From contig DASTBI010000115.1 of assembly GCA_035712145.1 (NCBI GenBank), positions 3,827-67,826 on the forward strand: a stretch of DNA of 64,000 nucleotides, in the 5' to 3' direction. Of this stretch, positions 5,997 through 62,371 are shown piece after piece. This stretch comes from Candidatus Eiseniibacteriota bacterium (GTDB taxonomy: Bacteria > Eisenbacteria > RBG-16-71-46). A program made the translations under genes and the position numbers. The notes beneath the pieces are model-generated. The model ran no database searches. It saw only the letters and a program-made list of their open reading frames with translations, and had not been told where the DNA came from. The stretch's first letter is position 1, and each line of letters begins with the position of its first letter.

Positions 5997-7081
5997 GGCG
6001 TGCGCTCGCGGAGCCTGCACTCGAGCGCGTTCACCAGCGCATCGGGGTCGAGCGAGGTGAGGTAGGGCCGAAGCTCCGGTGAGCTGACGACGGGGCAGCG
6101 GAGCAGGAAAAGCGACTGGATGCGGGTCGATGCTTCCGTCGAGTCGAGCGAAGCGACGTATCGATCGACGTAGGCGAGCCGAACCCGACGCGCCGTCGGC
6201 GGTGCGAAGCGGTCGAGGAATCGCTGCATCTCACGCCAGCCCGGCATGGCGACATCCACCTCGTACCGCACTCGGCCCAGATAACCACCAACGGGATTCC
6301 AGGAAACCAGATCACCGCGGAACAACTCGCGGTTCAGCCGGACGAGTGCCGAATCGGCGCCGACCGGAATGGAATCGTCGACGGCCGCCACCATTCCCCG
6401 CGAGCGCATCCCATACAGGTGGCTCTGCCAGCGCGACTGCTCTCGCATGTGACGCGACAGCTCGCCCGGCCAGAAGACCGCGACGTCCAGCTCGCCGCGT
6501 TCGAGCGCGATCTCCTCATCGTCGGCGTCGTCGAAGAACCGGGCGACCAACGTGTCGGGCCAAGGCGCTCTCAGCTCGACGGCGGGGTCACGCACCCATC
6601 GTGCGGATCGCGCGGTGGAATCCGCGGCGTGGTAAGCGCCGGGCGGAAGCACGAGGCCGACTCGCGCGCACGCGAACAGGAGGTTCGATCTCGCCGCGCT
6701 CGGATACCCGACCCGAAGCAGCGCACGGGAGGCAAGCTGCGAGCGCTCGGCGACGAGAACCTCGATGCGGCCGAGATCCTTCGGCTTCACCTTCGTCAAC
6801 GAGCCGGTCTGGATCATCACTTCAGCGAGCTCGCCGTGGAGCGTGCCGGTGACCAATCCGTGCGCGAGGTCGTCCTTGCGGTAGCGGAACGTGACGCGGT
6901 CTCCGGAGCGAAGCGCCAGAGAATCCCGCAAGGCGAGATACACATGCCGCTCACGAACGAGCACCACCTTGACGGGCGCGGAGCCGGAGTCACCCCGCCC
7001 GGCCAGTGGAATCCCGATCCATGCGAACAGGCTCAAGGCGGCGGCCGGCAGGAGCCGGCTCAGGACCGAGCCGGTCTCCAT
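5993..7081 (-). CDS. periplasmic solute-binding-like protein, first gene of the 3-gene two-component operon
   Basis: Internal ATG at 7081 gives METGSVLSRLLPAAALSLFAWIGIPLAGRG, a signal peptide. Upstream the track ORF is Pro/Arg-rich junk. The remaining ~330 aa have a mixed alpha/beta character compatible with a PBP-like fold. The stop overlaps the kinase start. Confidence 0.45.
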   Translation of the reverse strand: METGSVLSRLLPAAALSLFAWIGIPLAGRGDSGSAPVKVVLVRERHVYLALRDSLALRSGDRVTFRYRKDDLAHGLVTGTLHGELAEVMIQTGSLTKVKPKDLGRIEVLVAERSQLASRALLRVGYPSAARSNLLFACARVGLVLPPGAYHAADSTARSARWVRDPAVELRAPWPDTLVARFFDDADDEEIALERGELDVAVFWPGELSRHMREQSRWQSHLYGMRSRGMVAAVDDSIPVGADSALVRLNRELFRGDLVSWNPVGGYLGRVRYEVDVAMPGWREMQRFLDRFAPPTARRVRLAYVDRYVASLDSTEASTRIQSLFLLRCPVVSSPELRPYLTSLDPDALVNALECRLRERTP

Positions 7082-8140: not shown

Positions 8141-8749
8141 ATGGGCTTCCGCAGACTCGCATCACTCTACCGACGGCACTTTCGCGATCATCGTCGCGAA
8201 AGGATGTTCCTCGCCTCGATCAGCTTCTTCGTCACCTTCGGCGTAACTCGCTGGCTCACGCACGCCTACCGCAACCACGAGGACCCGCTCCAGGTCCACA
8301 TCGGGGGCGTCCACGTCCATCACCTGGTGTGGGGAATCCTCCTCCTGATCGTGGTCGGCTACATGTGGCTGATCCAGGTCGGAACCAATCACCAGGCGGT
8401 GCGGATGGGACGGATCACGTCGATTCTCTGGGGGGTGGGCGCCGCCCTCACACTCGACGAGTTCGCGCTGTGGCTCAATCTCGAGGACGTCTACTGGGAG
8501 CGGGAAGGCCGCGCGAGCGTGGACGTCACGCTGATGTACGGCGCGCTGGTCTCCGCCGGCCTGTGGGGAGGCCCGTTCCTTCGCGCGCTCGGGCGCCAGG
8601 GGCTGCGCATCCTGGGCTGGTCCTCCAAGCTCCGGGTGCGTCGCCGCCGACCGGTCGAGCCGGAAGTGGGGGAGCTGGCGGAAGAGACCGCGGTCGCCGC
8701 GGTCGAGACTAGTGCGACCAGCGGAACACGGCCTGACGGGCCCCGCTGA
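8141..8749 (+). CDS. hypothetical His-rich integral membrane protein
   Basis: Three or four hydrophobic helices (FLASISFFVTFGV, LVWGILLLIVVGYMWLI, ILWGVGAALTL, LMYGALVSAGLWGG). His cluster HIGGVHVHHLVWG. Start is ambiguous (8141 or 8204). Confidence 0.4.
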   Translation: MGFRRLASLYRRHFRDHRRERMFLASISFFVTFGVTRWLTHAYRNHEDPLQVHIGGVHVHHLVWGILLLIVVGYMWLIQVGTNHQAVRMGRITSILWGVGAALTLDEFALWLNLEDVYWEREGRASVDVTLMYGALVSAGLWGGPFLRALGRQGLRILGWSSKLRVRRRRPVEPEVGELAEETAVAAVETSATSGTRPDGPR

Positions 8750-11096: not shown

Positions 11097-11672
11097 TCAG
11101 GCGGGCGTGGTGGGCTTTGGAGGTTCCTCGGCGAGCAGCGTTTTCATGGTGGCCAGCGTCCGAGGGTCCCACCAGTCCACCTCGCCCGCCTGGGCGACGG
11201 CGATGCGGCCCGAGCGGTCGAGCACGTAGGTATAGGGGATGCTCGGGCACGGAAGCGCCCGGCGCAGCTCGCCCGGGCCGTCCAGCAGCACGGGAAGTCG
11301 CAGGCGCTGGCGGGCCACGTAGCGAGCCACCGAGGGAAAGGGATCGCTGCACGCGATCACCACGCGCAGGCCCTCGAGCGAGGGCTCGCGCCGCAAGGAG
11401 TCGAGATCCCGGGCCTGCTCGCGTGAGTGGCGCTCCCAGGGCGCCCAGTAGTGGATGAGCAGCACTTCCTCTCCCGCGTGCAAGCGGTGCATGCCCGCGG
11501 GGACCGCGGGCAGCACGACGTCGAAGGCGGCTTTCGTGCGCTCGGCATCGGGGCGCGCGATCAATGGGCGAGGGGCGTCGCCGGGGCGGGCGACGGTGAA
11601 CAGCTCGGCGCGCCACACCCACATCGCCAGCCCCACCACCGCGATCAACGGGATCGCGATGCGGGCTCTCAT
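11097..11672 (-). CDS. TlpA/ResA-like thioredoxin-fold protein lacking the CxxC active site
   Basis: N-terminal TM anchor. The thioredoxin-fold core reads LLIHYWAPWERHSREQARDL, aligning to the TlpA signature FWASWCGPCR with both Cys replaced (E and S). Its start overlaps the cstA stop by 4 nt. Confidence 0.55.
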   Translation of the reverse strand: MRARIAIPLIAVVGLAMWVWRAELFTVARPGDAPRPLIARPDAERTKAAFDVVLPAVPAGMHRLHAGEEVLLIHYWAPWERHSREQARDLDSLRREPSLEGLRVVIACSDPFPSVARYVARQRLRLPVLLDGPGELRRALPCPSIPYTYVLDRSGRIAVAQAGEVDWWDPRTLATMKTLLAEEPPKPTTPA

Positions 11673-13525
11673 GACGACGCCATCGCCTCAGCGGGTTCCG
11701 GCGCTTCGGCCTTCTCCCCCCGGCGCACGGCGCGAGCCCACTGGACGAGGCTGTCCACGATCACGATCACCAGCAGGGCCATGATGATCAGGGTCATGAC
11801 GCTCTGCAGCTTGGCGGGAGCGGGAGCCTGGACGAATGCCGCCCAGATCGACGGCGCTCCGGCCGCGAGCTGGGGCCGCAGGTAGTTGACGCTCAGATTG
11901 AGCCAGCCGGCGGTGAGCGTATTCACGCACATGAAGGCGAGCGGAGCGAGCGTGCACCAGGCGTAGCGGGCCTTGCCCATGTTGATCAGCACCGAGGTCC
12001 CGATGGCGAGCGCGAACGCCGCGAGCAGCTGGTTCGCCACCCCCAGCATGGGCCAGATGGTGCTCACCGTCCCGGTCCACACGAAATAGCCCCAGCCCGC
12101 GGTGGCGAGCGCGCTGAACAGCAACGCCGGCGCCAGGCCCTTCCACTGGCGTAGCGCGGGCATGACCATGCCGCCCACCTCCTGCAGCATGTAGCGAGTG
12201 ACTCGCGTGCCGGTGTCGATCAGCGTGAGCACGAACATCGCCTCGAACATGATGGCGAAGTGGTACCAGAAGCCCATCAAGCCCTTGAGGAAAGGCAGCG
12301 AGGCGAAGATCTGGGCCATGCCGACGGCGAGCGAGACCGCTCCGCCCGGGCGTCCGGCGAGGCTCTCGCCGACCTGCCGTTCGAGCTCGGGGAGATTCTG
12401 CACCGCCATGCCGAGCTGCGCGAACACCTCGGGCCGCGCGTTGATCGCGAAGTAGTCCGACGGATGGAGCGCGCAGGCGGCGATCAGGGCCATGACCCCG
12501 ACGAAGCCTTCGAGCACCATCGCGCCGTAGGAGATGGGGAGGATGTGGCGCTCGCGGTCGATCATCTTGGGCGTGGTTCCCGAGGCGATGAGGGAATGGA
12601 ACCCCGAGATCGCGCCGCAGGCGATGGTGATGAAGACGAAGGGAAAGAGCGTTCCCGGAAAGACCGGGCCGCCGCCATGGATGAACGGGGTGAAGGCGGG
12701 CATCTGCAGGCGCGGATTCACCACGATCACGCCGAGCGCCAGCAGGACGACCGCTCCGATCTTCATGAAGCTCGAGAGGTAGTCGCGCGGGCACAAGAGG
12801 AGCCACACCGGGAGCACCGAGGCGATGAAGCCGTAGGCCATGATCCCGATCGCGATGCCGTGTTGCGGGTACACGAACCAGCCGCGGAACGGAGCATTCT
12901 GCACCCACGCGCCCGCGGCCACCGAGCCCAGCAACAGCACGACGCCGATCGCCGTGACGGTACGCACCGAGCCTGGGCGGATCTTGTAGGACCAGATCCC
13001 CATGCCGAGCGCGATCGGAATGGTGAGGACGATGCTGACCACGCCCCAGGCGCTGTCGCGCAGCGCGTTGGTCACCACCAGCGCCATGGCCGCGAGCGCC
13101 ACCACCATGACGAACACGATCGCCACCGCGGTCGCCGCGCCGGTGAGCGGGCTCACCTCCTCGCGCGCGATGTTGGCCAGCGAGCGGCCGCCGCGCCGCA
13201 CCGACGCCATGAGGATGACGAAGTCGTGCACCCCGCCCGCCAGCACCGAGCCGACCAGGAGCCACAGGAACCCCGGGAAGTAGCCGAACTGCGCGGCGAG
13301 CACCGGTCCGATCAGCGGCCCCGCGCCGGCGATCGCCGCGAAGTGGTGCCCGAACAGGACCACCGGGTGGGTGGGCACGAAGTCATGGCCGTCCCGATGG
13401 GTGTGGGCCGGGGTGCGGCGCAAGTCATCGAGCGTGGCCACTTTGGCGGCCAGGAACGCCCCGTACGTGCGGTAGGCGATCACAGCGACCAGGGCCGAGA
13501 CGACGACCAGGTAGAGAGCGGGCAT
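11669..13525 (-). CDS. cstA: carbon starvation protein A (peptide/pyruvate transporter CstA family)
   Basis: 618 aa, with at least 16 predicted TM helices. Conserved CstA N-terminus (AFLAAKVATLDDLRRTPAH...VPTHPVVLFGHHFAAIAGAGPLIGPVLAAQFGY). Confidence 0.9.
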   Translation of the reverse strand: MPALYLVVVSALVAVIAYRTYGAFLAAKVATLDDLRRTPAHTHRDGHDFVPTHPVVLFGHHFAAIAGAGPLIGPVLAAQFGYFPGFLWLLVGSVLAGGVHDFVILMASVRRGGRSLANIAREEVSPLTGAATAVAIVFVMVVALAAMALVVTNALRDSAWGVVSIVLTIPIALGMGIWSYKIRPGSVRTVTAIGVVLLLGSVAAGAWVQNAPFRGWFVYPQHGIAIGIMAYGFIASVLPVWLLLCPRDYLSSFMKIGAVVLLALGVIVVNPRLQMPAFTPFIHGGGPVFPGTLFPFVFITIACGAISGFHSLIASGTTPKMIDRERHILPISYGAMVLEGFVGVMALIAACALHPSDYFAINARPEVFAQLGMAVQNLPELERQVGESLAGRPGGAVSLAVGMAQIFASLPFLKGLMGFWYHFAIMFEAMFVLTLIDTGTRVTRYMLQEVGGMVMPALRQWKGLAPALLFSALATAGWGYFVWTGTVSTIWPMLGVANQLLAAFALAIGTSVLINMGKARYAWCTLAPLAFMCVNTLTAGWLNLSVNYLRPQLAAGAPSIWAAFVQAPAPAKLQSVMTLIIMALLVIVIVDSLVQWARAVRRGEKAEAPEPAEAMASS

Positions 13526-13563
13526 CCAGACTCCGGATCAAGGGAACGGACGAAGCGCCGATA

Positions 13564-14163
13564 GTGTATGAGGGCGGCGCGATCGTCCACAACGCCGCCG
13601 AGGGAGGGAGCTTGAGAGCTGGCTTCATTCTCATCTGCTTGGCGATCACGGGTTGCGCGAGCGCGCGCGTTCCGGTCGCGCTCAGGACCGAGGCCGACGC
13701 GCGTCCCGTGGAGGGCGAGACCCGAATCTTCCTGCTGAGCGAAACCTCGGTGCCCATGGGCGCCCGCGGCTTCGGCCAGTTCACCGGCGACTCGTTCGTG
13801 GTCTATCGGCCGGTCGAGCAGCAGGGAGGAGCGAGCGCTTACCGCCGGGACGTCTACCGGGTGGGACGGTCGGGAATCCAGGTCGGTGGCTACACGCTCA
13901 CCGACGGCCGTCACCTGCGCTTCAACGGCACCGTGCGGCGGGAAGGTGATCGGCTGGTCTTCCACCGGATCCAGTCGGCGCGCAGCATGGAGAAGGTCGA
14001 GCCGACGACCGAGGTGTCCCTCGCGATGAGCGAGGTCCGGGCGGTGGATGCATTGCTTCCCGACGCGGGCAAGACCGTGATCATGATCAGCGGGGTCATG
14101 CTGATCATCCTCACCGCCCTCGGCCTCGCCTTCAAATCGGCGATGAGCGAGCCGCTGTTCTGA
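13564..14163 (+). CDS. dual-anchored lipoprotein, paralog A
   Basis: Lipobox LAITGC. C-terminal TM helix (VIMISGVMLIILTALGLAF). About 45-50% identical to the downstream paralog (ETRIFLLSE...VVYRP...RSGIQVGGYTLTDGRHLRFNGTVRREGDRLVF). The start could instead be a TTG at 13612, which has a GAGGGAGG SD. Confidence 0.55.
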   Translation: MYEGGAIVHNAAEGGSLRAGFILICLAITGCASARVPVALRTEADARPVEGETRIFLLSETSVPMGARGFGQFTGDSFVVYRPVEQQGGASAYRRDVYRVGRSGIQVGGYTLTDGRHLRFNGTVRREGDRLVFHRIQSARSMEKVEPTTEVSLAMSEVRAVDALLPDAGKTVIMISGVMLIILTALGLAFKSAMSEPLF

Positions 14164-14168
14164 GCCTT

Positions 14169-14223
14169 AGCTCGCGCGCTTGAGCTTGCTGCGGATCCGG
14201 CGCTCGTTGGGCGGCGCTCCGCT
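14169..14223. repeat. 55-nt exact direct repeat, copy 1 (orphan copy of the pilB 3' end)
   Basis: agctcgcgcgcttgagcttgctgcggatccggcgctcgttgggcggcgctccgct is identical to 14892..14946. On the minus strand it encodes ...GAPPNERRIRSKLKRAS, the C-terminus of PilB. The flanks differ. Confidence 0.85.
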
Positions 14224-14319
14224 GGGGGCGCCACCCTTTGTGGCGTAGTCTAGCGCCTTCACCGGCTCGACAACGGCAGGCCGAGTGGCGTGCGAGCATC
14301 CTGGAGGAGGCTGCTGATC

Positions 14320-14886
14320 ATGAATGCCACGCCCCGAGTGATCCTGGTGACGGCCTGGCTGCTTCTCGCCGGCTGTGCGACCGGCAAAGATCGCATCGCG
14401 TTCCGGAGCGAGGAAGGCTCGAGACCACTGGTCGGAGAGAACCGGATCTTTCTGCTCCCGGAGTCTCATGTGCCGGACGGCGCCAGGGGTTGGGGAGAGT
14501 TCGTGGGCGATACGCTGGTGGTCTACCGGCCTGCGCCCGAGATCGGAACCGAGCGCGCCTACTACGAGCGCAAGAGCTATCCGCTGCGCACCTCAGGGAT
14601 TTCGATCGGGAGCTACACCCTCCGCGACGGTCGACAGGTGTCTTTCAAAGGAACAATGCACCGATCCGATGACCGCGTGATCTTTCGCAGCACGCCATCC
14701 CGAGGTATGGAGAAGAAAGCGACTTCGCAGGAGGTCGCGTTTGCCATCCACGAGGTCCGATCGGTGGACCTCGTGACGGCGGAGGCGGCCACGGGCAACA
14801 TGGCGATCGCTCTACTGATCATGGGGGCGATCGCGACGGCCGCGGTTGTTTTGACAGTGCTTGGCGCCGGTTTCTGGATGCTCTGA
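14320..14886 (+). CDS. dual-anchored lipoprotein, paralog B
   Basis: ATG at 14320 with GGAGGAGG SD. MNATPRVILVTAWLLLAGC lipobox. C-terminal TM helix. Paralogous to 13564..14163. Confidence 0.6.
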   Translation: MNATPRVILVTAWLLLAGCATGKDRIAFRSEEGSRPLVGENRIFLLPESHVPDGARGWGEFVGDTLVVYRPAPEIGTERAYYERKSYPLRTSGISIGSYTLRDGRQVSFKGTMHRSDDRVIFRSTPSRGMEKKATSQEVAFAIHEVRSVDLVTAEAATGNMAIALLIMGAIATAAVVLTVLGAGFWML

Positions 14887-14889
14887 AGC

Positions 14890-16857
14890 TCAGCTCGCGC
14901 GCTTGAGCTTGCTGCGGATCCGGCGCTCGTTGGGCGGCGCTCCGCTCGCGGCCGCCTCGCCGGTGACGTCCTCGCCGTCCGACTCCCCGCAGTAGGGGCA
15001 GAAGGTCCACTTGGGATCCATGCGGCGGCGGCAATGCCGGCAGTGCTCGCCGACGTACTCCCCGCAGCTCGGGCAGTAGTCGAATTCCTGGGCGAGCACG
15101 TCATTGCACGAGGGGCACATCTTCACGCCGGTCTCGGCGAGATAGACCACGCGCGTCACTTCCTCGAGCGTGGTCTTTCCGCTCAGCACCTTTTGCAGCC
15201 CGTCCTCGCCGATGGTCCGCATGCCGGCTTCGACGGCGGCCTGCCGGATCGCGCTGTCGGGCGCGGACGCGGAGACCAGGCCGCGCACGGTGTCGTCGAC
15301 GTGCAGCACCTCGAAGATGCCGGTCCGGCCGTGGTAACCCGTCTGGCGACAGTGGGAGCAGCCGCGGCCGCGCGTCAGCGTGACCGAGCCTTCGGCGATC
15401 TCGCGGACGCCGAGCCGGCTCAGGTTGGAGGCGTTGACCTCGTAGGCCTCCTTGCAGCGCGGGCACAGCGTGCGGACCAGGCGCATGCTGACCACGCCGA
15501 TCAGGGAAGAAGCCACCATGAAGGGCTCGAGGCCGAGATCGATGAGCCGCGTGACCGCGCTGGCCGCGTCGTTGGTGTGCACCGTCGTGAGCACCAGATG
15601 GCCGGTCACCGAGGCGCGGAAGGCGATCTGCGCGGTCTCTTTGTCGCGGATCTCGCCGACCATGATCACGTCCGGATCCTGCCGCAGGATGGCGCGCAGC
15701 GCGATGGGGAAGGACTTCTTGGCTTTTTCGTCGACCTGGACCTGATTGATCCCCGCGATCTGGAACTCCACCGGATCCTCGACCGTCACGATGTTCTTGG
15801 TCTCGTGCTGGATGTGGCGCAACGCCGCATAGAGCAGGGTGCTCTTGCCCGACCCCGTCGGCCCGGTGACGAGCAGGATGCCTTGCGGCCGATCGAGGAA
15901 TCGCTTCACGTTCGTCTCGTCGTCGGCGAGGAAGCCGATGTCGCCGAGATCCATGCCGGCCTGCTTCTGGTCGACCACTCGAATCACGACCTTCTCGCCG
16001 TGCGTGGTCGGCAGCGTCGACACGCGCATGTCCACGCGATGGCCGCGGATCTCGACCACCAGACGGCCGTCCTGGGGCTGGCGCTTCTCGGCGATGTCGA
16101 GATTCGAGAGCACCTTGATGCGGGACACGATCGCCCCCTGGGTCCATTTGGGGAGCTTCTGGATTTCGTGCAGCAGTCCGTCGATCCGGAAGCGCACCAG
16201 CAGGTGGCGATCCTGCGGCTCGATATGGATGTCGCTGGCGCGCTCCTCGGCGGAGCGGTGCAGCAGCCAGTTGGTGAGCCGCACGATCGGGCGGCCTTCG
16301 GCTTCGCGGATCAGCTCGTCGATCGCCTCGGCCCGGTCGACATCGCGGATGGTGGCGATCTCGACGTCCTCTTCGGCGCTGATGATGTTGTTGATGACCT
16401 CGTTCATCGAGCGATCGATGTGGTAATAGCGCTCGATCGACTCGGCGATCGCCGAAGGCATGGCCAGCACCGGCTGGATGAACATGCCGCTGTGGAAGCG
16501 CAGGTCCTCGAGCGCCGCCACGTTGAGCGGATCGGCCATCGCCACGACCAGCGTGGAGCGGCCTTCGACCCGGATCGGCAGCGCCGCGTACTTCCGCGCC
16601 AGCTCCTCGCGGATCAGCGTGAGCGCCTGCTCGTCGGCGGATTCTTCGTTGAGGTCGAGGAGCGGAAGGCCGAGCTGCTCCTGCAGAGTCTTCATCAGCG
16701 TGGCTTCGGCGAGGATTCCGAGCCGCACCAGCGTGGCGCCGAGCAGCTCACCCGAGCGGCGCTGCTCCGCGATCGCGTCGGTCAAATCCTGCGGCGTGAT
16801 GACGTTGGCCTCGATCAGCATGTCGCCGAGGCGCTTGTGAGGCTTGGCCATGGGCAC
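14890..16857 (-). CDS. pilB: type IV pilus assembly / type II secretion ATPase (PilB/GspE family) with N-terminal MshEN-type domain and extra C-terminal double zinc-ribbon
   Basis: GSPII_E N-domain (ANVITPQDLTDAIAEQRRSGELLGATLVRLGIL). Walker A GPTGSGKST. Asp box, Walker B and His box present. Canonical tetracysteine motif (CPRC...CSHC). An additional ~75-aa tail carries 8 Cys (CPSC..CPSC..CRHC..CPYC) and a basic end RRIRSKLKRAS. Confidence 0.9.
   Translation of the reverse strand: MPMAKPHKRLGDMLIEANVITPQDLTDAIAEQRRSGELLGATLVRLGILAEATLMKTLQEQLGLPLLDLNEESADEQALTLIREELARKYAALPIRVEGRSTLVVAMADPLNVAALEDLRFHSGMFIQPVLAMPSAIAESIERYYHIDRSMNEVINNIISAEEDVEIATIRDVDRAEAIDELIREAEGRPIVRLTNWLLHRSAEERASDIHIEPQDRHLLVRFRIDGLLHEIQKLPKWTQGAIVSRIKVLSNLDIAEKRQPQDGRLVVEIRGHRVDMRVSTLPTTHGEKVVIRVVDQKQAGMDLGDIGFLADDETNVKRFLDRPQGILLVTGPTGSGKSTLLYAALRHIQHETKNIVTVEDPVEFQIAGINQVQVDEKAKKSFPIALRAILRQDPDVIMVGEIRDKETAQIAFRASVTGHLVLTTVHTNDAASAVTRLIDLGLEPFMVASSLIGVVSMRLVRTLCPRCKEAYEVNASNLSRLGVREIAEGSVTLTRGRGCSHCRQTGYHGRTGIFEVLHVDDTVRGLVSASAPDSAIRQAAVEAGMRTIGEDGLQKVLSGKTTLEEVTRVVYLAETGVKMCPSCNDVLAQEFDYCPSCGEYVGEHCRHCRRRMDPKWTFCPYCGESDGEDVTGEAAASGAPPNERRIRSKLKRAS
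14892..14946. repeat. 55-nt exact direct repeat, copy 2 (native 3' end of pilB)
   Basis: Identical to 14169..14223. It forms the last 17 codons of the PilB-like gene. Confidence 0.85.
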
Positions 16858-16970: not shown

Positions 16971-18749
16971 GTGTCCGACTCGACCTCCGCTCCCGGCGCC
17001 ACGGAGGTCCCGCCGCCGGCAGAGTCCGCGGAAGACCTCCATTCCATTCTGGCCACGCTGGCCGATCGCCCGACCTCGTCCCGCTTCAACGACCTGGTGC
17101 GGGCCGCGAGCCGTCATGCCCGCGAGCTGGTGCGCTGCGAGGTCGCGCGCATCTGGGTGCTGCGGCGCGGAGGCCGCCGCCTGGTGGCGCGCGACTTTCC
17201 GGAAAGCGAGCAGGCGAAGCCCATCGAGCACCGGCTGGCCTCGCATGAAGGCCTGGCCGGGTGGGTGGTGTCGCGCGGACGTGCCGTGCGGCTCGGATCC
17301 GGCGAGCTGCCGCCGGGATTCCTGGGGGAGCCCCCGCGGTTCCGCTCGGCGGTGGTCGTGCCGCTCAGACGCCGCGGCGAAGCCTTCGCCGCGCTCGAGT
17401 GCATCGACCGCCGCGACGGCCTGCCGTTCGACGATGACGACCTGGAGCGGCTGGAAGAGGAGGCCCACCATCTGTCGGTGGCGCTCGACAACGCGCTGCT
17501 CACCGTCGAGCTCGAGCGCAAGGCGCTCGAGAAGGACGTGCTCTTCGAGGTCACGAAGGTCCTTTCGGCCACGCTCGACATCGACGAGGTGTTCGAGGCC
17601 ATCTTCCGGTCGCTTCGCCAGGTGGTGCCTTACGACGCCGCGGCCATCTACCTCGTCAATCCCAAGACGCTGGCGCTCGAGCAGGTGAGCGACGTCGGCT
17701 ACCCCGAAGGATCGGACGAAGCGTTCCATCTCGGCGTGGGCGTGGGTCTCGTGGGGTGGGTGGCCAAGACCGGCGAGGCGGTCATCGTTCCCGACGTGAG
17801 GCACGATGCGCGCTACGTCGCCGCGCGGCCGGCGACGCGCAGCGAGCTCGCCGCCCCGCTCATGGTCGAAGGCCGCACCATCGGCGTCTTCAACCTCGAG
17901 AACGACCTCGAGGACTTCTTCCACGAGAACCATCTCGAGCTGCTCACGGCCTTCGCCTCCCACGCGGCGGTGGCCATCGAGCGCGCACGGCTGACCCGCG
18001 AGCTGCTCGAGCGCCGTCGCCTCGAGAAGGAGCTGGCGATCGCGCGCGACATCCAGCTCTCGTTCCTGCCCAAGCGGGCGCCGCAGATCCCGGGCTTCGA
18101 GCTGGCAGGGGCGGCCCTGCCCCACACCGAGGTGGGGGGCGACTACTACGACTTCATCCCGGTGTCCGACTCACGGCTCGGGCTCGCGATCGCCGACGTG
18201 TCGGGCAAGGGGATCCCGGCGGGGTTGCTGATGGCGGGGTTCCGCATGAGCCTGCTCGCGGAGATCCGCAATGACTTCGCGATCCGCGCCGTGATGCGCA
18301 AGGTGAACACGCTGCTGCACGAGAGCATCGAGCGCGACAAGTTCGTCACCGCCTTCTATGGCGTGCTCGATTACAAGAACCGCGTCCTGATCTTCTCCAA
18401 TGCCGGCCACAATCCGCCGATCCTGGCGCGGGCCGATGGCACGATCGAGCAGCTGGTGGAAGGCGGTGTGGCGCTGGGCGTGCTGCCGGACGCGGTCTAC
18501 GAGGAGCGTCCGATCGCCGTCCACCCCGGCGATGTGCTGCTGCTCTACACCGACGGCGCTACGGAAGCCGAGTCCCCGAGCGGCGAGCAGTTCGGGCAGT
18601 GGCGTCTCGAGCAGCTGGTCTCGAGCTTGCGTGAGCGGTCGGCCGCCGAGATCCTCGAGGCGGTGGTCGACGAAGTGCTCGAGTGGGTGGGGGAGCGCGG
18701 GCAGAACGACGACCTCACGCTGATGGTCGTGAAGGGCAAGCTCGACTAG
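16971..18749 (+). CDS. GAF-GAF-PP2C (SpoIIE/RsbU-like) serine/threonine phosphatase
   Basis: Two GAF-like segments. The C-terminal PPM-type phosphatase domain reads GGDYYDF...GLAIADVSGKGIPAGL...FSNAGHNPP...YTDGATEA...DDLTLMVV. Confidence 0.85.
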   Translation: MSDSTSAPGATEVPPPAESAEDLHSILATLADRPTSSRFNDLVRAASRHARELVRCEVARIWVLRRGGRRLVARDFPESEQAKPIEHRLASHEGLAGWVVSRGRAVRLGSGELPPGFLGEPPRFRSAVVVPLRRRGEAFAALECIDRRDGLPFDDDDLERLEEEAHHLSVALDNALLTVELERKALEKDVLFEVTKVLSATLDIDEVFEAIFRSLRQVVPYDAAAIYLVNPKTLALEQVSDVGYPEGSDEAFHLGVGVGLVGWVAKTGEAVIVPDVRHDARYVAARPATRSELAAPLMVEGRTIGVFNLENDLEDFFHENHLELLTAFASHAAVAIERARLTRELLERRRLEKELAIARDIQLSFLPKRAPQIPGFELAGAALPHTEVGGDYYDFIPVSDSRLGLAIADVSGKGIPAGLLMAGFRMSLLAEIRNDFAIRAVMRKVNTLLHESIERDKFVTAFYGVLDYKNRVLIFSNAGHNPPILARADGTIEQLVEGGVALGVLPDAVYEERPIAVHPGDVLLLYTDGATEAESPSGEQFGQWRLEQLVSSLRERSAAEILEAVVDEVLEWVGERGQNDDLTLMVVKGKLD

Positions 18750-22002: not shown

Positions 22003-22687
22003 GGCGCTGCTGTTCTCGTCCGACGAGCCGCTGTCGCTCTCGCTGCTCGCCGAGTCGCTCGACGCCGCCTCCGAAGACGTCGCCCGCGAGCTCCTCGAGC
22101 TGGATGCCGACTATCGCGTTCGCGGTGCCGGCGTGGAGCTGCGCGAGATCGCGGGCGGCCATCTGCTGGTCACCGCCCCCGAGCATGCCGAGTGGGTGGG
22201 ACGGCTGCTGCGCGGCCGCAAGCGCGTGCGTCTGTCGCGGGCCGCGCTCGAGACCATGGCGATCGTGGCGTACAAGCAGCCGGTGACGAAGGCCGAGGTC
22301 GAGGCCATTCGCGGCGTGGACTCGAGCGCCGTGCTGGCCACGCTGCTCGAGCGCAATCTGATCACGATTCGCGGGCGATCGAAGGTGGTGGGCCGGCCGC
22401 TCCTCTACGGCAGCACCTCCGAGTTCCTCGACTACTTCGGTCTCAAGGATCTCACCGAGCTGCCGCGGCCCGAGGAGCTGCGAGCGCTCGTGGCGGCCCG
22501 CGAGCCGGAGCAGATGGACATGATCGAGCTGCAAGTGCCCGCCGATCTCGCCGAGACGCTGCCCGAAGGCGCGGCGACCGTTGACGCGAGCGACGAGGGT
22601 GAGATGGCGGAGGAAGCCGAGGAATTCGATGAGCCCTCGGCCGATGAGTCCGAAGAGTCCGAGCCGGCCGAGCAGGAAAAAGTCTGA
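21971..22687 (+). CDS. scpB: segregation and condensation protein B
   Basis: ScpB winged-helix repeats (ALEALLFSSDEPLSLSLLAE..., ETMAIVAYKQPVTKAEVEAIRGV). Acidic C-terminal tail. Overlaps the scpA end. Confidence 0.85.
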   Translation: MPPSNLKAALEALLFSSDEPLSLSLLAESLDAASEDVARELLELDADYRVRGAGVELREIAGGHLLVTAPEHAEWVGRLLRGRKRVRLSRAALETMAIVAYKQPVTKAEVEAIRGVDSSAVLATLLERNLITIRGRSKVVGRPLLYGSTSEFLDYFGLKDLTELPRPEELRALVAAREPEQMDMIELQVPADLAETLPEGAATVDASDEGEMAEEAEEFDEPSADESEESEPAEQEKV

Positions 22688-24099
22688 GCGGCATCCGTCT
22701 CAACAAGCTGCTCGCGGGACGCGGGATCGGATCGCGGCGTGCCTGCGACACGCTGATCGAATCGGGCGTGGTGCGGGTGAACGGCGCCGTCGTCCGCGAG
22801 CCGGGGCGTCGCGTCGAGCCCGAGCGCGACCGGGTGATGGTGCGCGGCCGTCCGCTCCCCGGCAGGAGCGCATTGCGCTACTTCCTGATCCACAAGCCGG
22901 TGGGGATGATCACGACGCTCCACGATCCGGAAGGCCGCGCCACCGTGCGCGACCTGCTCCCGCCTGGTCCGAGGCTCTTTCCGGTGGGCCGGCTGGATGC
23001 GGACACGAGCGGGCTCTTGCTCGTCACCAACGACGGCGAGCTGGCGCACAAGCTCATGCACCCGCGCTACGGAGTGGAGAAGCGCTACCGCGTCCTGGTG
23101 GACGAAGTCCCCGACTCGGCTCAGCTGAGGCGCATGCGCGAAGGCGTGACGCTCGAGCCCGGCGTGCGCACCGGACCGGCCGACGTGCGGCTGGCGCGCT
23201 CCCAGCGCGAGCGGCCCATGGTCGACATCCGGATCCACGAAGGGCGCTACCGCCAGGTGCGGCGCATGTGCGAAGCCGTGGGACTCGGCGTCAAGGCGCT
23301 GCATCGCTATGGGTACGGCCCGCTGCAAATCGGCACCCTGCCGCGCGGCGCGTTGCGCCCGCTGTCCGAAGGGGAGGTGCGGAAGCTGAAGGCGATGGCC
23401 GCGCGGCCGGGCGGCGTGGCACCGCGTCGTTTCCACGGCCCGGCGCCAAGCGGCGAGCGGAGCCGTCCGCCGGTGCCAAAGCGGCCCCGTCGCGAGCGCA
23501 CCTTCGAACAGCCCCGTCGCGAGCACCCTTCCGCCCGGCCACGTGGGGGGCGCACCTCCGATCGGCCGCGTGGCGAGCGGACCTTCGATCGGCCACGGGC
23601 GGGGCGCACCTCCGCCCGGCCACGTCGTGAGCCCACCTTCGATCAGCCGCGTCGCGGGCGCACCTCTGATCGGCCACGTGGCGAGCGGACCTTCGAGCGG
23701 CCCCGTCGCGAGCGCACCTTCGATCGGCCACGTGGCGAGCGGACCTTCGATCAGCCGCGTCGCGGGCGCACCTCCGATCGGGCACGTGGCGAGCGGACCT
23801 TCGAGCAGCCGCGTCGCGGGCGCACCTCCGATCGGGCACGTGGCGAGCGGACCTTCGAGCAGCCGCGTCGCGGGCGCACCTCCGATCGGCCGCGTGGCGA
23901 GCGGACCTTCGAGCGACCACGCCGGGGGCGCACCTCCGATCGCCCGGGTGGCGGACGGACCTTCGATCGGCCACGTGGCGAGCGGCAACCTCGAAGCAAG
24001 CGCGGTCGCCCGATGGGTCAAAGAGCGGGACGCCCTGGGTCCGGGGGCTCACCAAGGCGCCCGGGGGGGCCTCGAAGGCCTCGGGCAGGCCGCGGGTGA
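22684..24099 (+). CDS. rluB: 23S rRNA pseudouridine synthase RluB/RsuA family (S4 domain + catalytic domain) with long Arg-rich repetitive C-terminal tail
   Basis: S4 domain IRLNKLLAGRGIGSRRACDTLIESGVVRVNG. Catalytic motif FPVGRLDADTSGLLLVTNDG. The conserved S4 segment lies upstream of the first ATG/GTG (track ORF begins at GTG 22768). A CTG at 22684 with an AGGA SD gives the canonical N-terminal length, hence the extended call. Confidence 0.75.
   Translation: MSGIRLNKLLAGRGIGSRRACDTLIESGVVRVNGAVVREPGRRVEPERDRVMVRGRPLPGRSALRYFLIHKPVGMITTLHDPEGRATVRDLLPPGPRLFPVGRLDADTSGLLLVTNDGELAHKLMHPRYGVEKRYRVLVDEVPDSAQLRRMREGVTLEPGVRTGPADVRLARSQRERPMVDIRIHEGRYRQVRRMCEAVGLGVKALHRYGYGPLQIGTLPRGALRPLSEGEVRKLKAMAARPGGVAPRRFHGPAPSGERSRPPVPKRPRRERTFEQPRREHPSARPRGGRTSDRPRGERTFDRPRAGRTSARPRREPTFDQPRRGRTSDRPRGERTFERPRRERTFDRPRGERTFDQPRRGRTSDRARGERTFEQPRRGRTSDRARGERTFEQPRRGRTSDRPRGERTFERPRRGRTSDRPGGGRTFDRPRGERQPRSKRGRPMGQRAGRPGSGGSPRRPGGPRRPRAGRG
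23470..24000 (+). repeat. in-frame tandem coding repeat (27/54-nt units) encoding RPRGERTFD/QPRRGRTSD repeats in the RluB tail
   Basis: About 18 imperfect copies of a 9-aa Arg-rich unit. The nucleotide-level periodicity generates the long antisense shadow ORFs seen in the track. Confidence 0.7.
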
Positions 24100-62213: not shown

Positions 62214-62371
62214 GAGCGACACCCCCGCGGCCAGCCGCAGGCATGTCGAAGGGACCCACAGACGCCGTAGCCATGGATGGTGGAGGCGTCGAGGACCGAG
62301 CGAGGCGGAGCAGGATGCGGAGCCGACGCGTGCCCGAGACATGCCTGCGGCTGGCCGCGGGGGTGTCGCTC
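62214..62371. repeat. perfect 34-bp inverted repeat (gagcgacacccccgcggccagccgcaggcatgtc / revcomp) separated by a 90-nt spacer, in a convergent intergenic region
   Basis: Arms at 62214..62247 and 62338..62371 are exact reverse complements. This explains the mirrored peptides TCLRLAAGVSL in track ORFs on both strands. The total 158 bp is in the MITE / long-terminator size range. Confidence 0.8.

Follow-up and report, generated by a model that had tools for sequence, protein, structure and literature searches.

We analysed a 64-kb stretch of a metagenome-assembled genome (MAG) of Candidatus Eisenbacteria from soil (~67% G+C; hereafter the window), in which two small lipoprotein genes, lipoA and lipoB, lie between cstA and a convergent pilB-type ATPase gene and are each followed by the same 55 nucleotides (nt) of the pilB 3′ end. 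The order across positions 11669–16857 is cstA (minus strand), an 86-nt spacer, lipoA (plus strand), the first copy of the 55-nt repeat (V), a 96-nt spacer (X), lipoB (plus strand), a 3-nt spacer and pilB (minus strand), with NCBI locus tags VFQ05_06860 to VFQ05_06870 covering the lipoA–lipoB–pilB region. The carbon starvation protein gene cstA (11669–13525; Pfam CstA, E = 1e-204) forms the left flank of the interval, and pilB (14890–16857; Pfam and NCBIfam matches), for which the NCBI protein of 653 amino acids (aa) starts at 16851, forms its conserved right flank. We refer to this interval as the slot, and to each lipoprotein gene with its upstream region as a cassette.

The 55-mer, AGCTCGCGCGCTTGAGCTTGCTGCGGATCCGGCGCTCGTTGGGCGGCGCTCCGCT, occurs exactly twice in the window, at 14169–14223 and 14892–14946, one copy after each lipoprotein gene as the initial annotation of this DNA had reported. 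No further copy with up to three mismatches was found in the window (0 expected by chance), and the 55-mer is the sole long dispersed exact repeat in the 64 kb. Read on the minus strand, it comprises the last 18 sense codons of pilB and the first base of its stop codon, rather than the last 17 codons as first counted. V copy 2, identified from both the open reading frame (ORF) and the exact repeat, is the functional pilB 3′ end (…SGAPPNERRIRSKLKRAS-stop) and begins, on the plus strand, after the T and C of the pilB stop triplet; V copy 1 is recognized as an exact repeat on the same strand, and the stop codon next to it is TAA, whereas pilB itself uses TGA. The stop codons of lipoA and lipoB each lie 3 nt from a pilB-type stop, in the geometry seen in relatives with a single lipoprotein gene. 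Exact identity and a spacing from the lipoprotein stop like that at real tails both bear out the reading of the copy after lipoA as an orphan pilB tail. To the right of the two copies the sequences are unrelated, with X joined directly to tail position 55. To the left, in contrast to the unrelated flanks described earlier, 9 of 13 nt match and the 3-nt spacer is shared. The minus-strand pseudo-ORF noted over the orphan tail (14167–14469, 100 aa) does exist, but it matches no family and is probably a chance ORF, because it runs antisense to the 5′ end of lipoB in 67% G+C DNA; it should not count as a gene in annotation.

Both lipoprotein genes are preceded by a pair of short boxes. The upstream region of cassette 1 (13526–13611, plus strand) contains box 1, TAGTGTAT, at 13562–13569, box 2, TCGTCCACAACG, 13 nt further on, and the Shine-Dalgarno sequence GGAGGGAG. 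Among the related loci described below, box 1 follows the consensus [TC]AGT[CGT]TA[GT] and stands 36–41 nt from the cstA start codon in 9 loci, and box 2, again 13 nt after box 1, reads TCG(T)CACAACG or TCTCAACG (side form TC(G/T)..CAACG); the boxes probably serve the divergent cstA and lipoprotein genes as promoter or operator elements. Spacer X (14224–14319, plus strand) carries box 1, TAGTCTAG, at 14246–14253, box 2, TCGACAACG, at 14267–14275 and the Shine-Dalgarno sequence GGAGGAGG, the two boxes standing 13 nt apart, as they do ahead of lipoA and in the related loci. TAGTCTAG occurs once in 64 kb against 0.05 expected. Only 22 nt remain to the left of box 1 in X, compared with 36–41 nt elsewhere, such that ~15 nt are gone on the cstA side. 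Local alignment of X with the intergenic regions revealed no significant overall similarity, and what ties X to them is confined to the two short boxes and their spacing. As the slot upstream region minus ~15 nt, X makes unit 2 a whole cassette of upstream region, lipoB and pilB end, and the presence of both boxes at their native spacing indicates that lipoB was once positioned directly after cstA. Across the joint between the orphan tail and X, both the minimum-free-energy and the centroid folds of 14150–14270 contain a G+C-rich hairpin of 11 bp (14208–14235, plus strand; GGGCGGCGCUCC-GCUG-GGGGCGCCACCC, then UUUGU). The terminator scan did not call this hairpin, which might act as a weak or makeshift terminator for lipoA.

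The lipoA gene (13612–14163, plus strand; VFQ05_06860) encodes 183 aa and lipoB (14320–14886, plus strand; VFQ05_06865) 188 aa. For lipoA, the GTG at 13564 that had been taken as the start is probably not one; the most likely start is the TTG at 13612, since it is preceded by the Shine-Dalgarno sequence GGAGGGAG and agrees with the 183 aa of VFQ05_06860. As originally proposed, both proteins combine an N-terminal lipobox with a hydrophobic C-terminal transmembrane helix. Their signal peptides end in a lipobox of the form [LVI][ASTVI][GAS]C (…LAITGC in lipoA, with ITGC at its core, and …LLLAGC, with LAGC, in lipoB), the cysteine being nearly invariant across the family alignments, and they are thus predicted lipoproteins and candidate substrates of signal peptidase II. 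The C-terminus is hydrophobic in all family members, and its predicted helix would provide a second membrane anchor. In an AlphaFold2 model of lipoA, built from a 17-sequence alignment (predicted local distance difference test score 86), a signal helix is followed by an all-beta domain with ~11 strands, and the C-terminal helix spans residues 152–178.

The family to which the two proteins belong is small and unannotated: an exhaustive HMMER search of 1.84 billion cluster representatives returned 21 members only, and it is placed between cstA and a stand-alone pilB. Searches of Pfam, NCBIfam, PADLOC, PHROGs and the PDB by sequence gave no family assignment, and neither Pfam, NCBIfam nor PADLOC matched a toxin or immunity signature. 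The suggestion of a pilus- or secretion-associated lipoprotein of the PilP or pilotin type likewise found no backing in sequence or fold homology. The putative lipoprotein PDB 3bdu, a small SH3/Sm-like beta-barrel, is a weak match (49 residues aligned at 10% identity); unlike barrels of that type, the window family has two barrel-like halves and a C-terminal transmembrane helix. lipoA and lipoB are 41–43% identical in protein, rather than the 45–50% first estimated, and ~55% identical in DNA, and the closest family relatives of lipoB are lipoA-type proteins (40–44%, against 29–37% for other members). Identity at third codon positions is 0.44, which is saturated, as compared with 0.65–0.73 for pilB and cstA against other species; the contrast with the 55 of 55 matches in the repeat is therefore real. 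G+C content at third codon positions is 0.76 in lipoB, 0.87 in lipoA, 0.91 in pilB and 0.93 in cstA.

Further copies of the slot were sought in genome and metagenome collections. The comparison set holds 11 related loci; in contig L013 the sequence ends inside the slot. Every fetched contig that reaches both flanks has one or two family members between cstA and a convergent pilB. The order cstA, one or two members, pilB is found in L001/L002, L004–L006, L007, L008, L009, L011, L012 and L014; cstA adjoins the slot in 10 of the 11 loci (the left neighbour in L010 is only 35% identical to cstA), and pilB is convergent to it in all loci that extend that far. The content of the slot differs from locus to locus. 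L008, the one locus returned by a scan of JGI metagenomes, has a pilB part 84% identical to the window in nucleotides and a single lipoA orthologue (68% aa identity). L004–L006, with pilB at 93% aa identity, contain a degraded lipoA and a short member (lipoS′ in L004). More distant loci have a short member, lipoS, overlapping a P0002-type gene (L001/L002), a single gene with a run of N inside (L007), or a single gene of another type (L009, L010, L011, L012). No second pilB tail is present in the slots of L001/L002 or L004–L012. The cstA–pilB interval is a conserved variable slot for lipoprotein cassettes.

Several observations on individual contigs belong with this comparison. The degraded lipoA of L004, the closest species-level relative, lies at 6493–6756 on the minus strand; here the upstream boxes and the beginning of the gene run directly into the C-terminal ‘PDAG...TM helix’ part (TM, transmembrane), the beta domain having been deleted. 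The N run in the SPAdes scaffold L007 covers 8347–8400, inside the slot lipoprotein gene, and suggests strain heterogeneity or low coverage exactly at the slot. The 58-nt spacer of L011 was considered as the site of a possible second relic tail, a candidate that was rejected because 215 of 1000 dinucleotide shuffles scored as well or better. Scanning the GTDB species genomes, a collection that does not include the source species, with the family alignment gave one match, L003 from Saccharospirillum, which is weak (52 residues) and probably spurious. Exact look-ups of the window pilB and lipoB returned no match.

Cluster look-ups recovered two strain-level relatives, L013 (SRR25158272) and L014 (SRR28285674), which are Logan contigs assembled independently with k=31 from other sequencing runs. 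L013 is 99.67% identical to 13323–14223, and thus includes lipoA and the full 55-mer; it ends exactly at 14223, the last base of the 55-mer, in keeping with a graph branch point following a repeat. L014, which stems from a different sample, matches the window at 96.5% in cstA as far as the start codon, at which the similarity stops; a second stretch of 96.5% identity begins at 14301, 19 nt ahead of lipoB, and takes in lipoB, the tail and 750 nt of pilB. The lipoB2 of L014 shares 93% aa identity with the window lipoB. Between these near-identical flanks the first cassette of L014 is a different one, with a different upstream region and a gene, lipoC, of 180 aa that is 42% identical to lipoA and 51% identical to P0002; lipoA and lipoC do not align as DNA. 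After lipoC come TAG, CGC and TCAGCTCGCGGGCTTGAGCTTGCT, which is an orphan pilB tail of 22–24 nt that has 1 mismatch to the window V and 2 (of 22) to the pilB tail of L014 itself and that is joined directly to the lipoB Shine-Dalgarno region. L014 thus presents a first cassette, an orphan tail, lipoB and pilB, confirming that the stacking with a displaced pilB tail is real. Between the window and L014 the stacked arrangement varies in both the first cassette present and the location of the joint.

The coding regions shared with L014 have diverged unevenly. Synonymous divergence (dS) is 0.057 for lipoB, 0.061 for the available part of pilB and 0.10 for that of cstA, with ratios of nonsynonymous to synonymous rates (dN/dS) of 0.7, 0.21 and 0.12, respectively. 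The high ratio and the low third-position G+C content of lipoB suggest a foreign origin, relaxed constraint or diversifying selection. Fast evolution of the lipoproteins (a dN/dS of 0.7 against 0.1–0.2, and 42%-identical alleles between 96.5%-identical flanks) would be typical of diversifying pressure, as on targets of phages or toxins, or of relaxed constraint.

PilB itself has a cyclic-di-GMP (c-di-GMP)-binding MshEN N-terminus, a T2SSE ATPase domain, a C-terminal double zinc ribbon and a basic tail, an architecture that more than 100 Eisenbacteria-like homologues share. Within the gene, the tail varies most and evolves fastest (0.56–0.72 identity in the first 120 nt, compared with 0.8–0.95 elsewhere), so the identity of the two copies at 55 of 55 positions denotes a recent event; sliding-window identity along pilB revealed no visible recombination breakpoint. 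The window pilB stands alone, with no neighbouring pilus genes, and is divergent from a GAF-GAF-SpoIIE phosphatase gene (16971–18749). The annotation of one pilB homologue, P0150 on a 59,100-nt JGI contig, gives it 790 aa, of which the last ~220 residues are out-of-frame read-through into the slot, probably reflecting a frameshift or an assembly error in that contig.

Identity between the copies had been attributed either to very recent gene conversion or to selection on the 55-mer as a nucleic-acid element, possibly a shared convergent terminator or RNA motif; another candidate for a selected element is a ‘handle’ kept after each cassette for exchange. The first ~20 nt of the 55-mer are indeed retained in the relatives (14–19 of 20 positions, and 18–19 everywhere except L007) and can form a 5–6-bp hairpin (AGCUC-N8-GAGCU); in addition, an orphan tail follows the first cassette in both stacked loci, the window and L014, where it would in principle give homology for a swap of cassette 1. 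These 20 nt, however, encode KLKRAS-stop, and their conservation is explained by this coding sequence with its G+C-rich preferred codons. The remaining 35 nt match at only 16–19 positions (~50%), and the whole 55-mer matches the pilB tails of the relatives at 30–38 of 55 positions. Neither strand of the 55-mer folds better than its dinucleotide shuffles (z = +0.58 for the plus strand and −0.04 for the minus strand), its 121-nt contexts give z values between −1.9 and +0.4, the terminator scan did not call it, and an Rfam search returned 0 matches at E <= 1. The orphan, moreover, is 55 nt long in the window and ~22 nt with mismatches in L014, and in L001 the two stacked genes overlap, leaving no tail in between. 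Selection on the 55-mer is hence very improbable, and without a sign of it the 55/55 identity must reflect a recent event.

A different account would be an old tandem duplication of the upstream region, gene and pilB tail, after which the genes diverged in place to 41% while the tails were kept identical by repeated gene conversion, or by one recent conversion, from the functional pilB end. The two units do share one layout (two boxes, gene, 3-nt spacer, tail), the proteins nearest to lipoB are of the lipoA type, and the two 55-mers show 0 differences, even though the arrangement could be older than the divergence from L014. As in tandem duplications with concerted evolution, two members stand head to tail with shared upstream boxes and a shared downstream 55 nt; unlike in such duplications, synonymously saturated genes stand beside an identical repeat. 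The species-level relatives speak against this history, since L001, L004, L008, L009, L011 and L012 have slots with a single gene or another pair and lack the tandem and second tail, and position 1 is occupied by a different gene in the 96.5%-identical L014. The L014 orphan is truncated and differs from its own pilB tail at 2 of 22 positions, and hence has not been homogenized, and a 55-nt tract with unrelated right flanks would be a poor substrate for sustained conversion, given the minimal homology lengths of this process. Finally, no lipoB orthologue was found outside the window/L014 lineage; combined with the synonymous saturation of lipoA and lipoB, this means that divergence in place would need many independent losses. 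We regard this history as unlikely: the two genes described as tandem paralogues are adjacent members of one family, but they behave as stacked alternative cassettes rather than as a duplication that diverged in place.

The arrangement could also have arisen in silico, if an assembler had merged two co-occurring strain haplotypes (lipoA–pilB and lipoB–pilB) where they shared a k-mer. At 55 nt the repeat is as long as the largest k that metaSPAdes uses by default; the slot gives assemblers trouble, as the N run in the L007 scaffold illustrates; in the European Nucleotide Archive (ENA), variants of lipoA (P0146) and of pilB (P0156) are each on a contig of 19,346 nt, seemingly one and the same; and the sole lipoB member in that archive is incomplete and sits on a 617-nt contig, as might be expected if a loop had been collapsed or skipped. 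Yet a graph path from V to X needs reads that hold the V–X joint, and X does not open with a copy of the left anchor. L014 is stacked in a similar manner, and since its orphan tail falls short of the k of 31, the stacking there cannot be a graph artefact. If the MAG belongs to the SMAG soil catalogue, which is our own unverified surmise, 55 is not a k value at all, because that catalogue was assembled with MEGAHIT using k = 27, 37, 47, 57 and so on (PMC10640626). The initial annotation had named assembly collapse or a chimeric duplication as what would overturn its reading. This concern is largely answered by the two independent contigs, L013 for lipoA with the full 55-mer and L014 for the stacked locus, the exact V|X joint excepted; on these contigs and the repeat scan, the idea of a k=55 artefact was downgraded, and we now consider it quite improbable.

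We consider it probable that flank-anchored recombination with one illegitimate joint recently stacked two allelic cassettes, leaving the 55-mer as its scar. The lipoA-, lipoB- and lipoC-type cassettes, each a short upstream region with two boxes plus a gene, would be alternative occupants of one slot that are swapped between related genomes via its conserved flanks, consistent with the near-identical sequences (96.5%) that surround the non-homologous lipoA and lipoC. One end of the exchange would be homologous, in cstA or pilB, and the other an illegitimate joint that connects position 55 of the pilB tail with the other cassette ~15 nt into its upstream region. Such an exchange would have added a second cassette instead of replacing the first, thereby doubling the last 18 codons of pilB and leaving the copy after lipoA as a displaced, non-functional remnant. 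The two tails would then match because little time has passed since the event and because both partners carried one and the same pilB tail; selection on the 55-mer would play no part. This sequence of events would account for an identity that starts where the variable cassette gives way to the pilB stop codon, for its abrupt end at an arbitrary codon (the joint), for the cut-down upstream region X, and for the differing lengths of the orphan in the window and L014. With respect to the two causes originally offered, the 55/55 identity does mark a recent event and selection is not supported, whereas gene conversion is possible but not needed.

Several points weigh against this interpretation. 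No donor, and no single-cassette cstA–X–lipoB–pilB haplotype, was found, and the direction and mechanism of the recombination are consequently inferred. The V/X joint at 14223|14224 is seen in this MAG contig only, because L014 lacks 14191–14300. The difference between the window and L014 could represent either two independent stackings or one stacking followed by a 110-nt deletion and a swap of cassette 1. If the stacking predates the window/L014 split (dS ~0.06), ~2–3 substitutions would be expected between the 55-mers and none is seen (P ~0.08), leaving room for some gene conversion. Finally, neither natural transformation nor any other route of DNA exchange is known from Eisenbacteria, an uncultured phylum.

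The proposed event resembles homology-facilitated illegitimate recombination, in which a one-sided homology anchor is combined with an illegitimate joint and which is known from Acinetobacter, Pseudomonas stutzeri and Streptococcus pneumoniae. As there, cstA and pilB flanks of 96.5% identity stand beside an unrelated block, the V|X joint lacks homology, and a foreign cassette appears to have been added beside resident DNA. In contrast to the documented cases, the mechanism here is read from the end product only, with neither donor nor recipient haplotype recovered. A second parallel lies in rhs loci and in contact-dependent inhibition (CDI; cdiA-CT/cdiI) loci, where C-terminal displacement creates orphan modules. 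There, as here, the arrays differ between close strains, and pilB has likewise retained a working 3′ end, with an older 3′ tip left over as an orphan by a variable small gene. Unlike in rhs and CDI loci, the displaced piece is 18 codons of basic tail with no toxin domain, the variable genes are convergent to pilB, and no toxin or immunity signature was found. On this reading, the locus is a fresh example of known genome dynamics, with an uncharacterized lipoprotein family.

As by-products of such an event, the 55-nt direct repeat could mediate precise loss of lipoB and could serve as the right-hand homology for swapping cassette 1. A more far-reaching proposal, which we hold to be distinctly doubtful, is that the displaced pilB tail serves a cassette system at the population level as a handle of portable homology. 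Every lipoprotein cassette entering the slot would carry a pilB-tail segment with it or encounter one there, and exposed, diversifying lipoprotein variants beside a c-di-GMP-sensing PilB ATPase could then be stacked, swapped (lipoA against lipoC) or, by recombination between the two 55-mers, precisely lost. If true, the system would have counterparts in pilin cassette recombination, with its conserved 3′ repeats, or in the orphan modules of rhs and CDI loci. Under the recombination-scar interpretation that we favour, the odd ‘conserved 55-mer’ would become a legible trace of a recent exchange of cassettes in an uncultured soil phylum. MAG assemblies may also collapse or skip a cassette at exact repeats such as this one.

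Two further repeats were observed elsewhere in the window. A tandem array at 23482–23984 has a 54-nt period and 9.3 copies with 85% matches, and would encode an 18-aa repeat in a long ORF, either 22768–24099 on the plus strand or 22432–24021 on the minus strand. The only long inverted repeat in the window is a perfect one of 34 nt, with arms at 62214–62247 and 62338–62371 that lie 90 nt apart, at the junction of two minus-strand ORFs.

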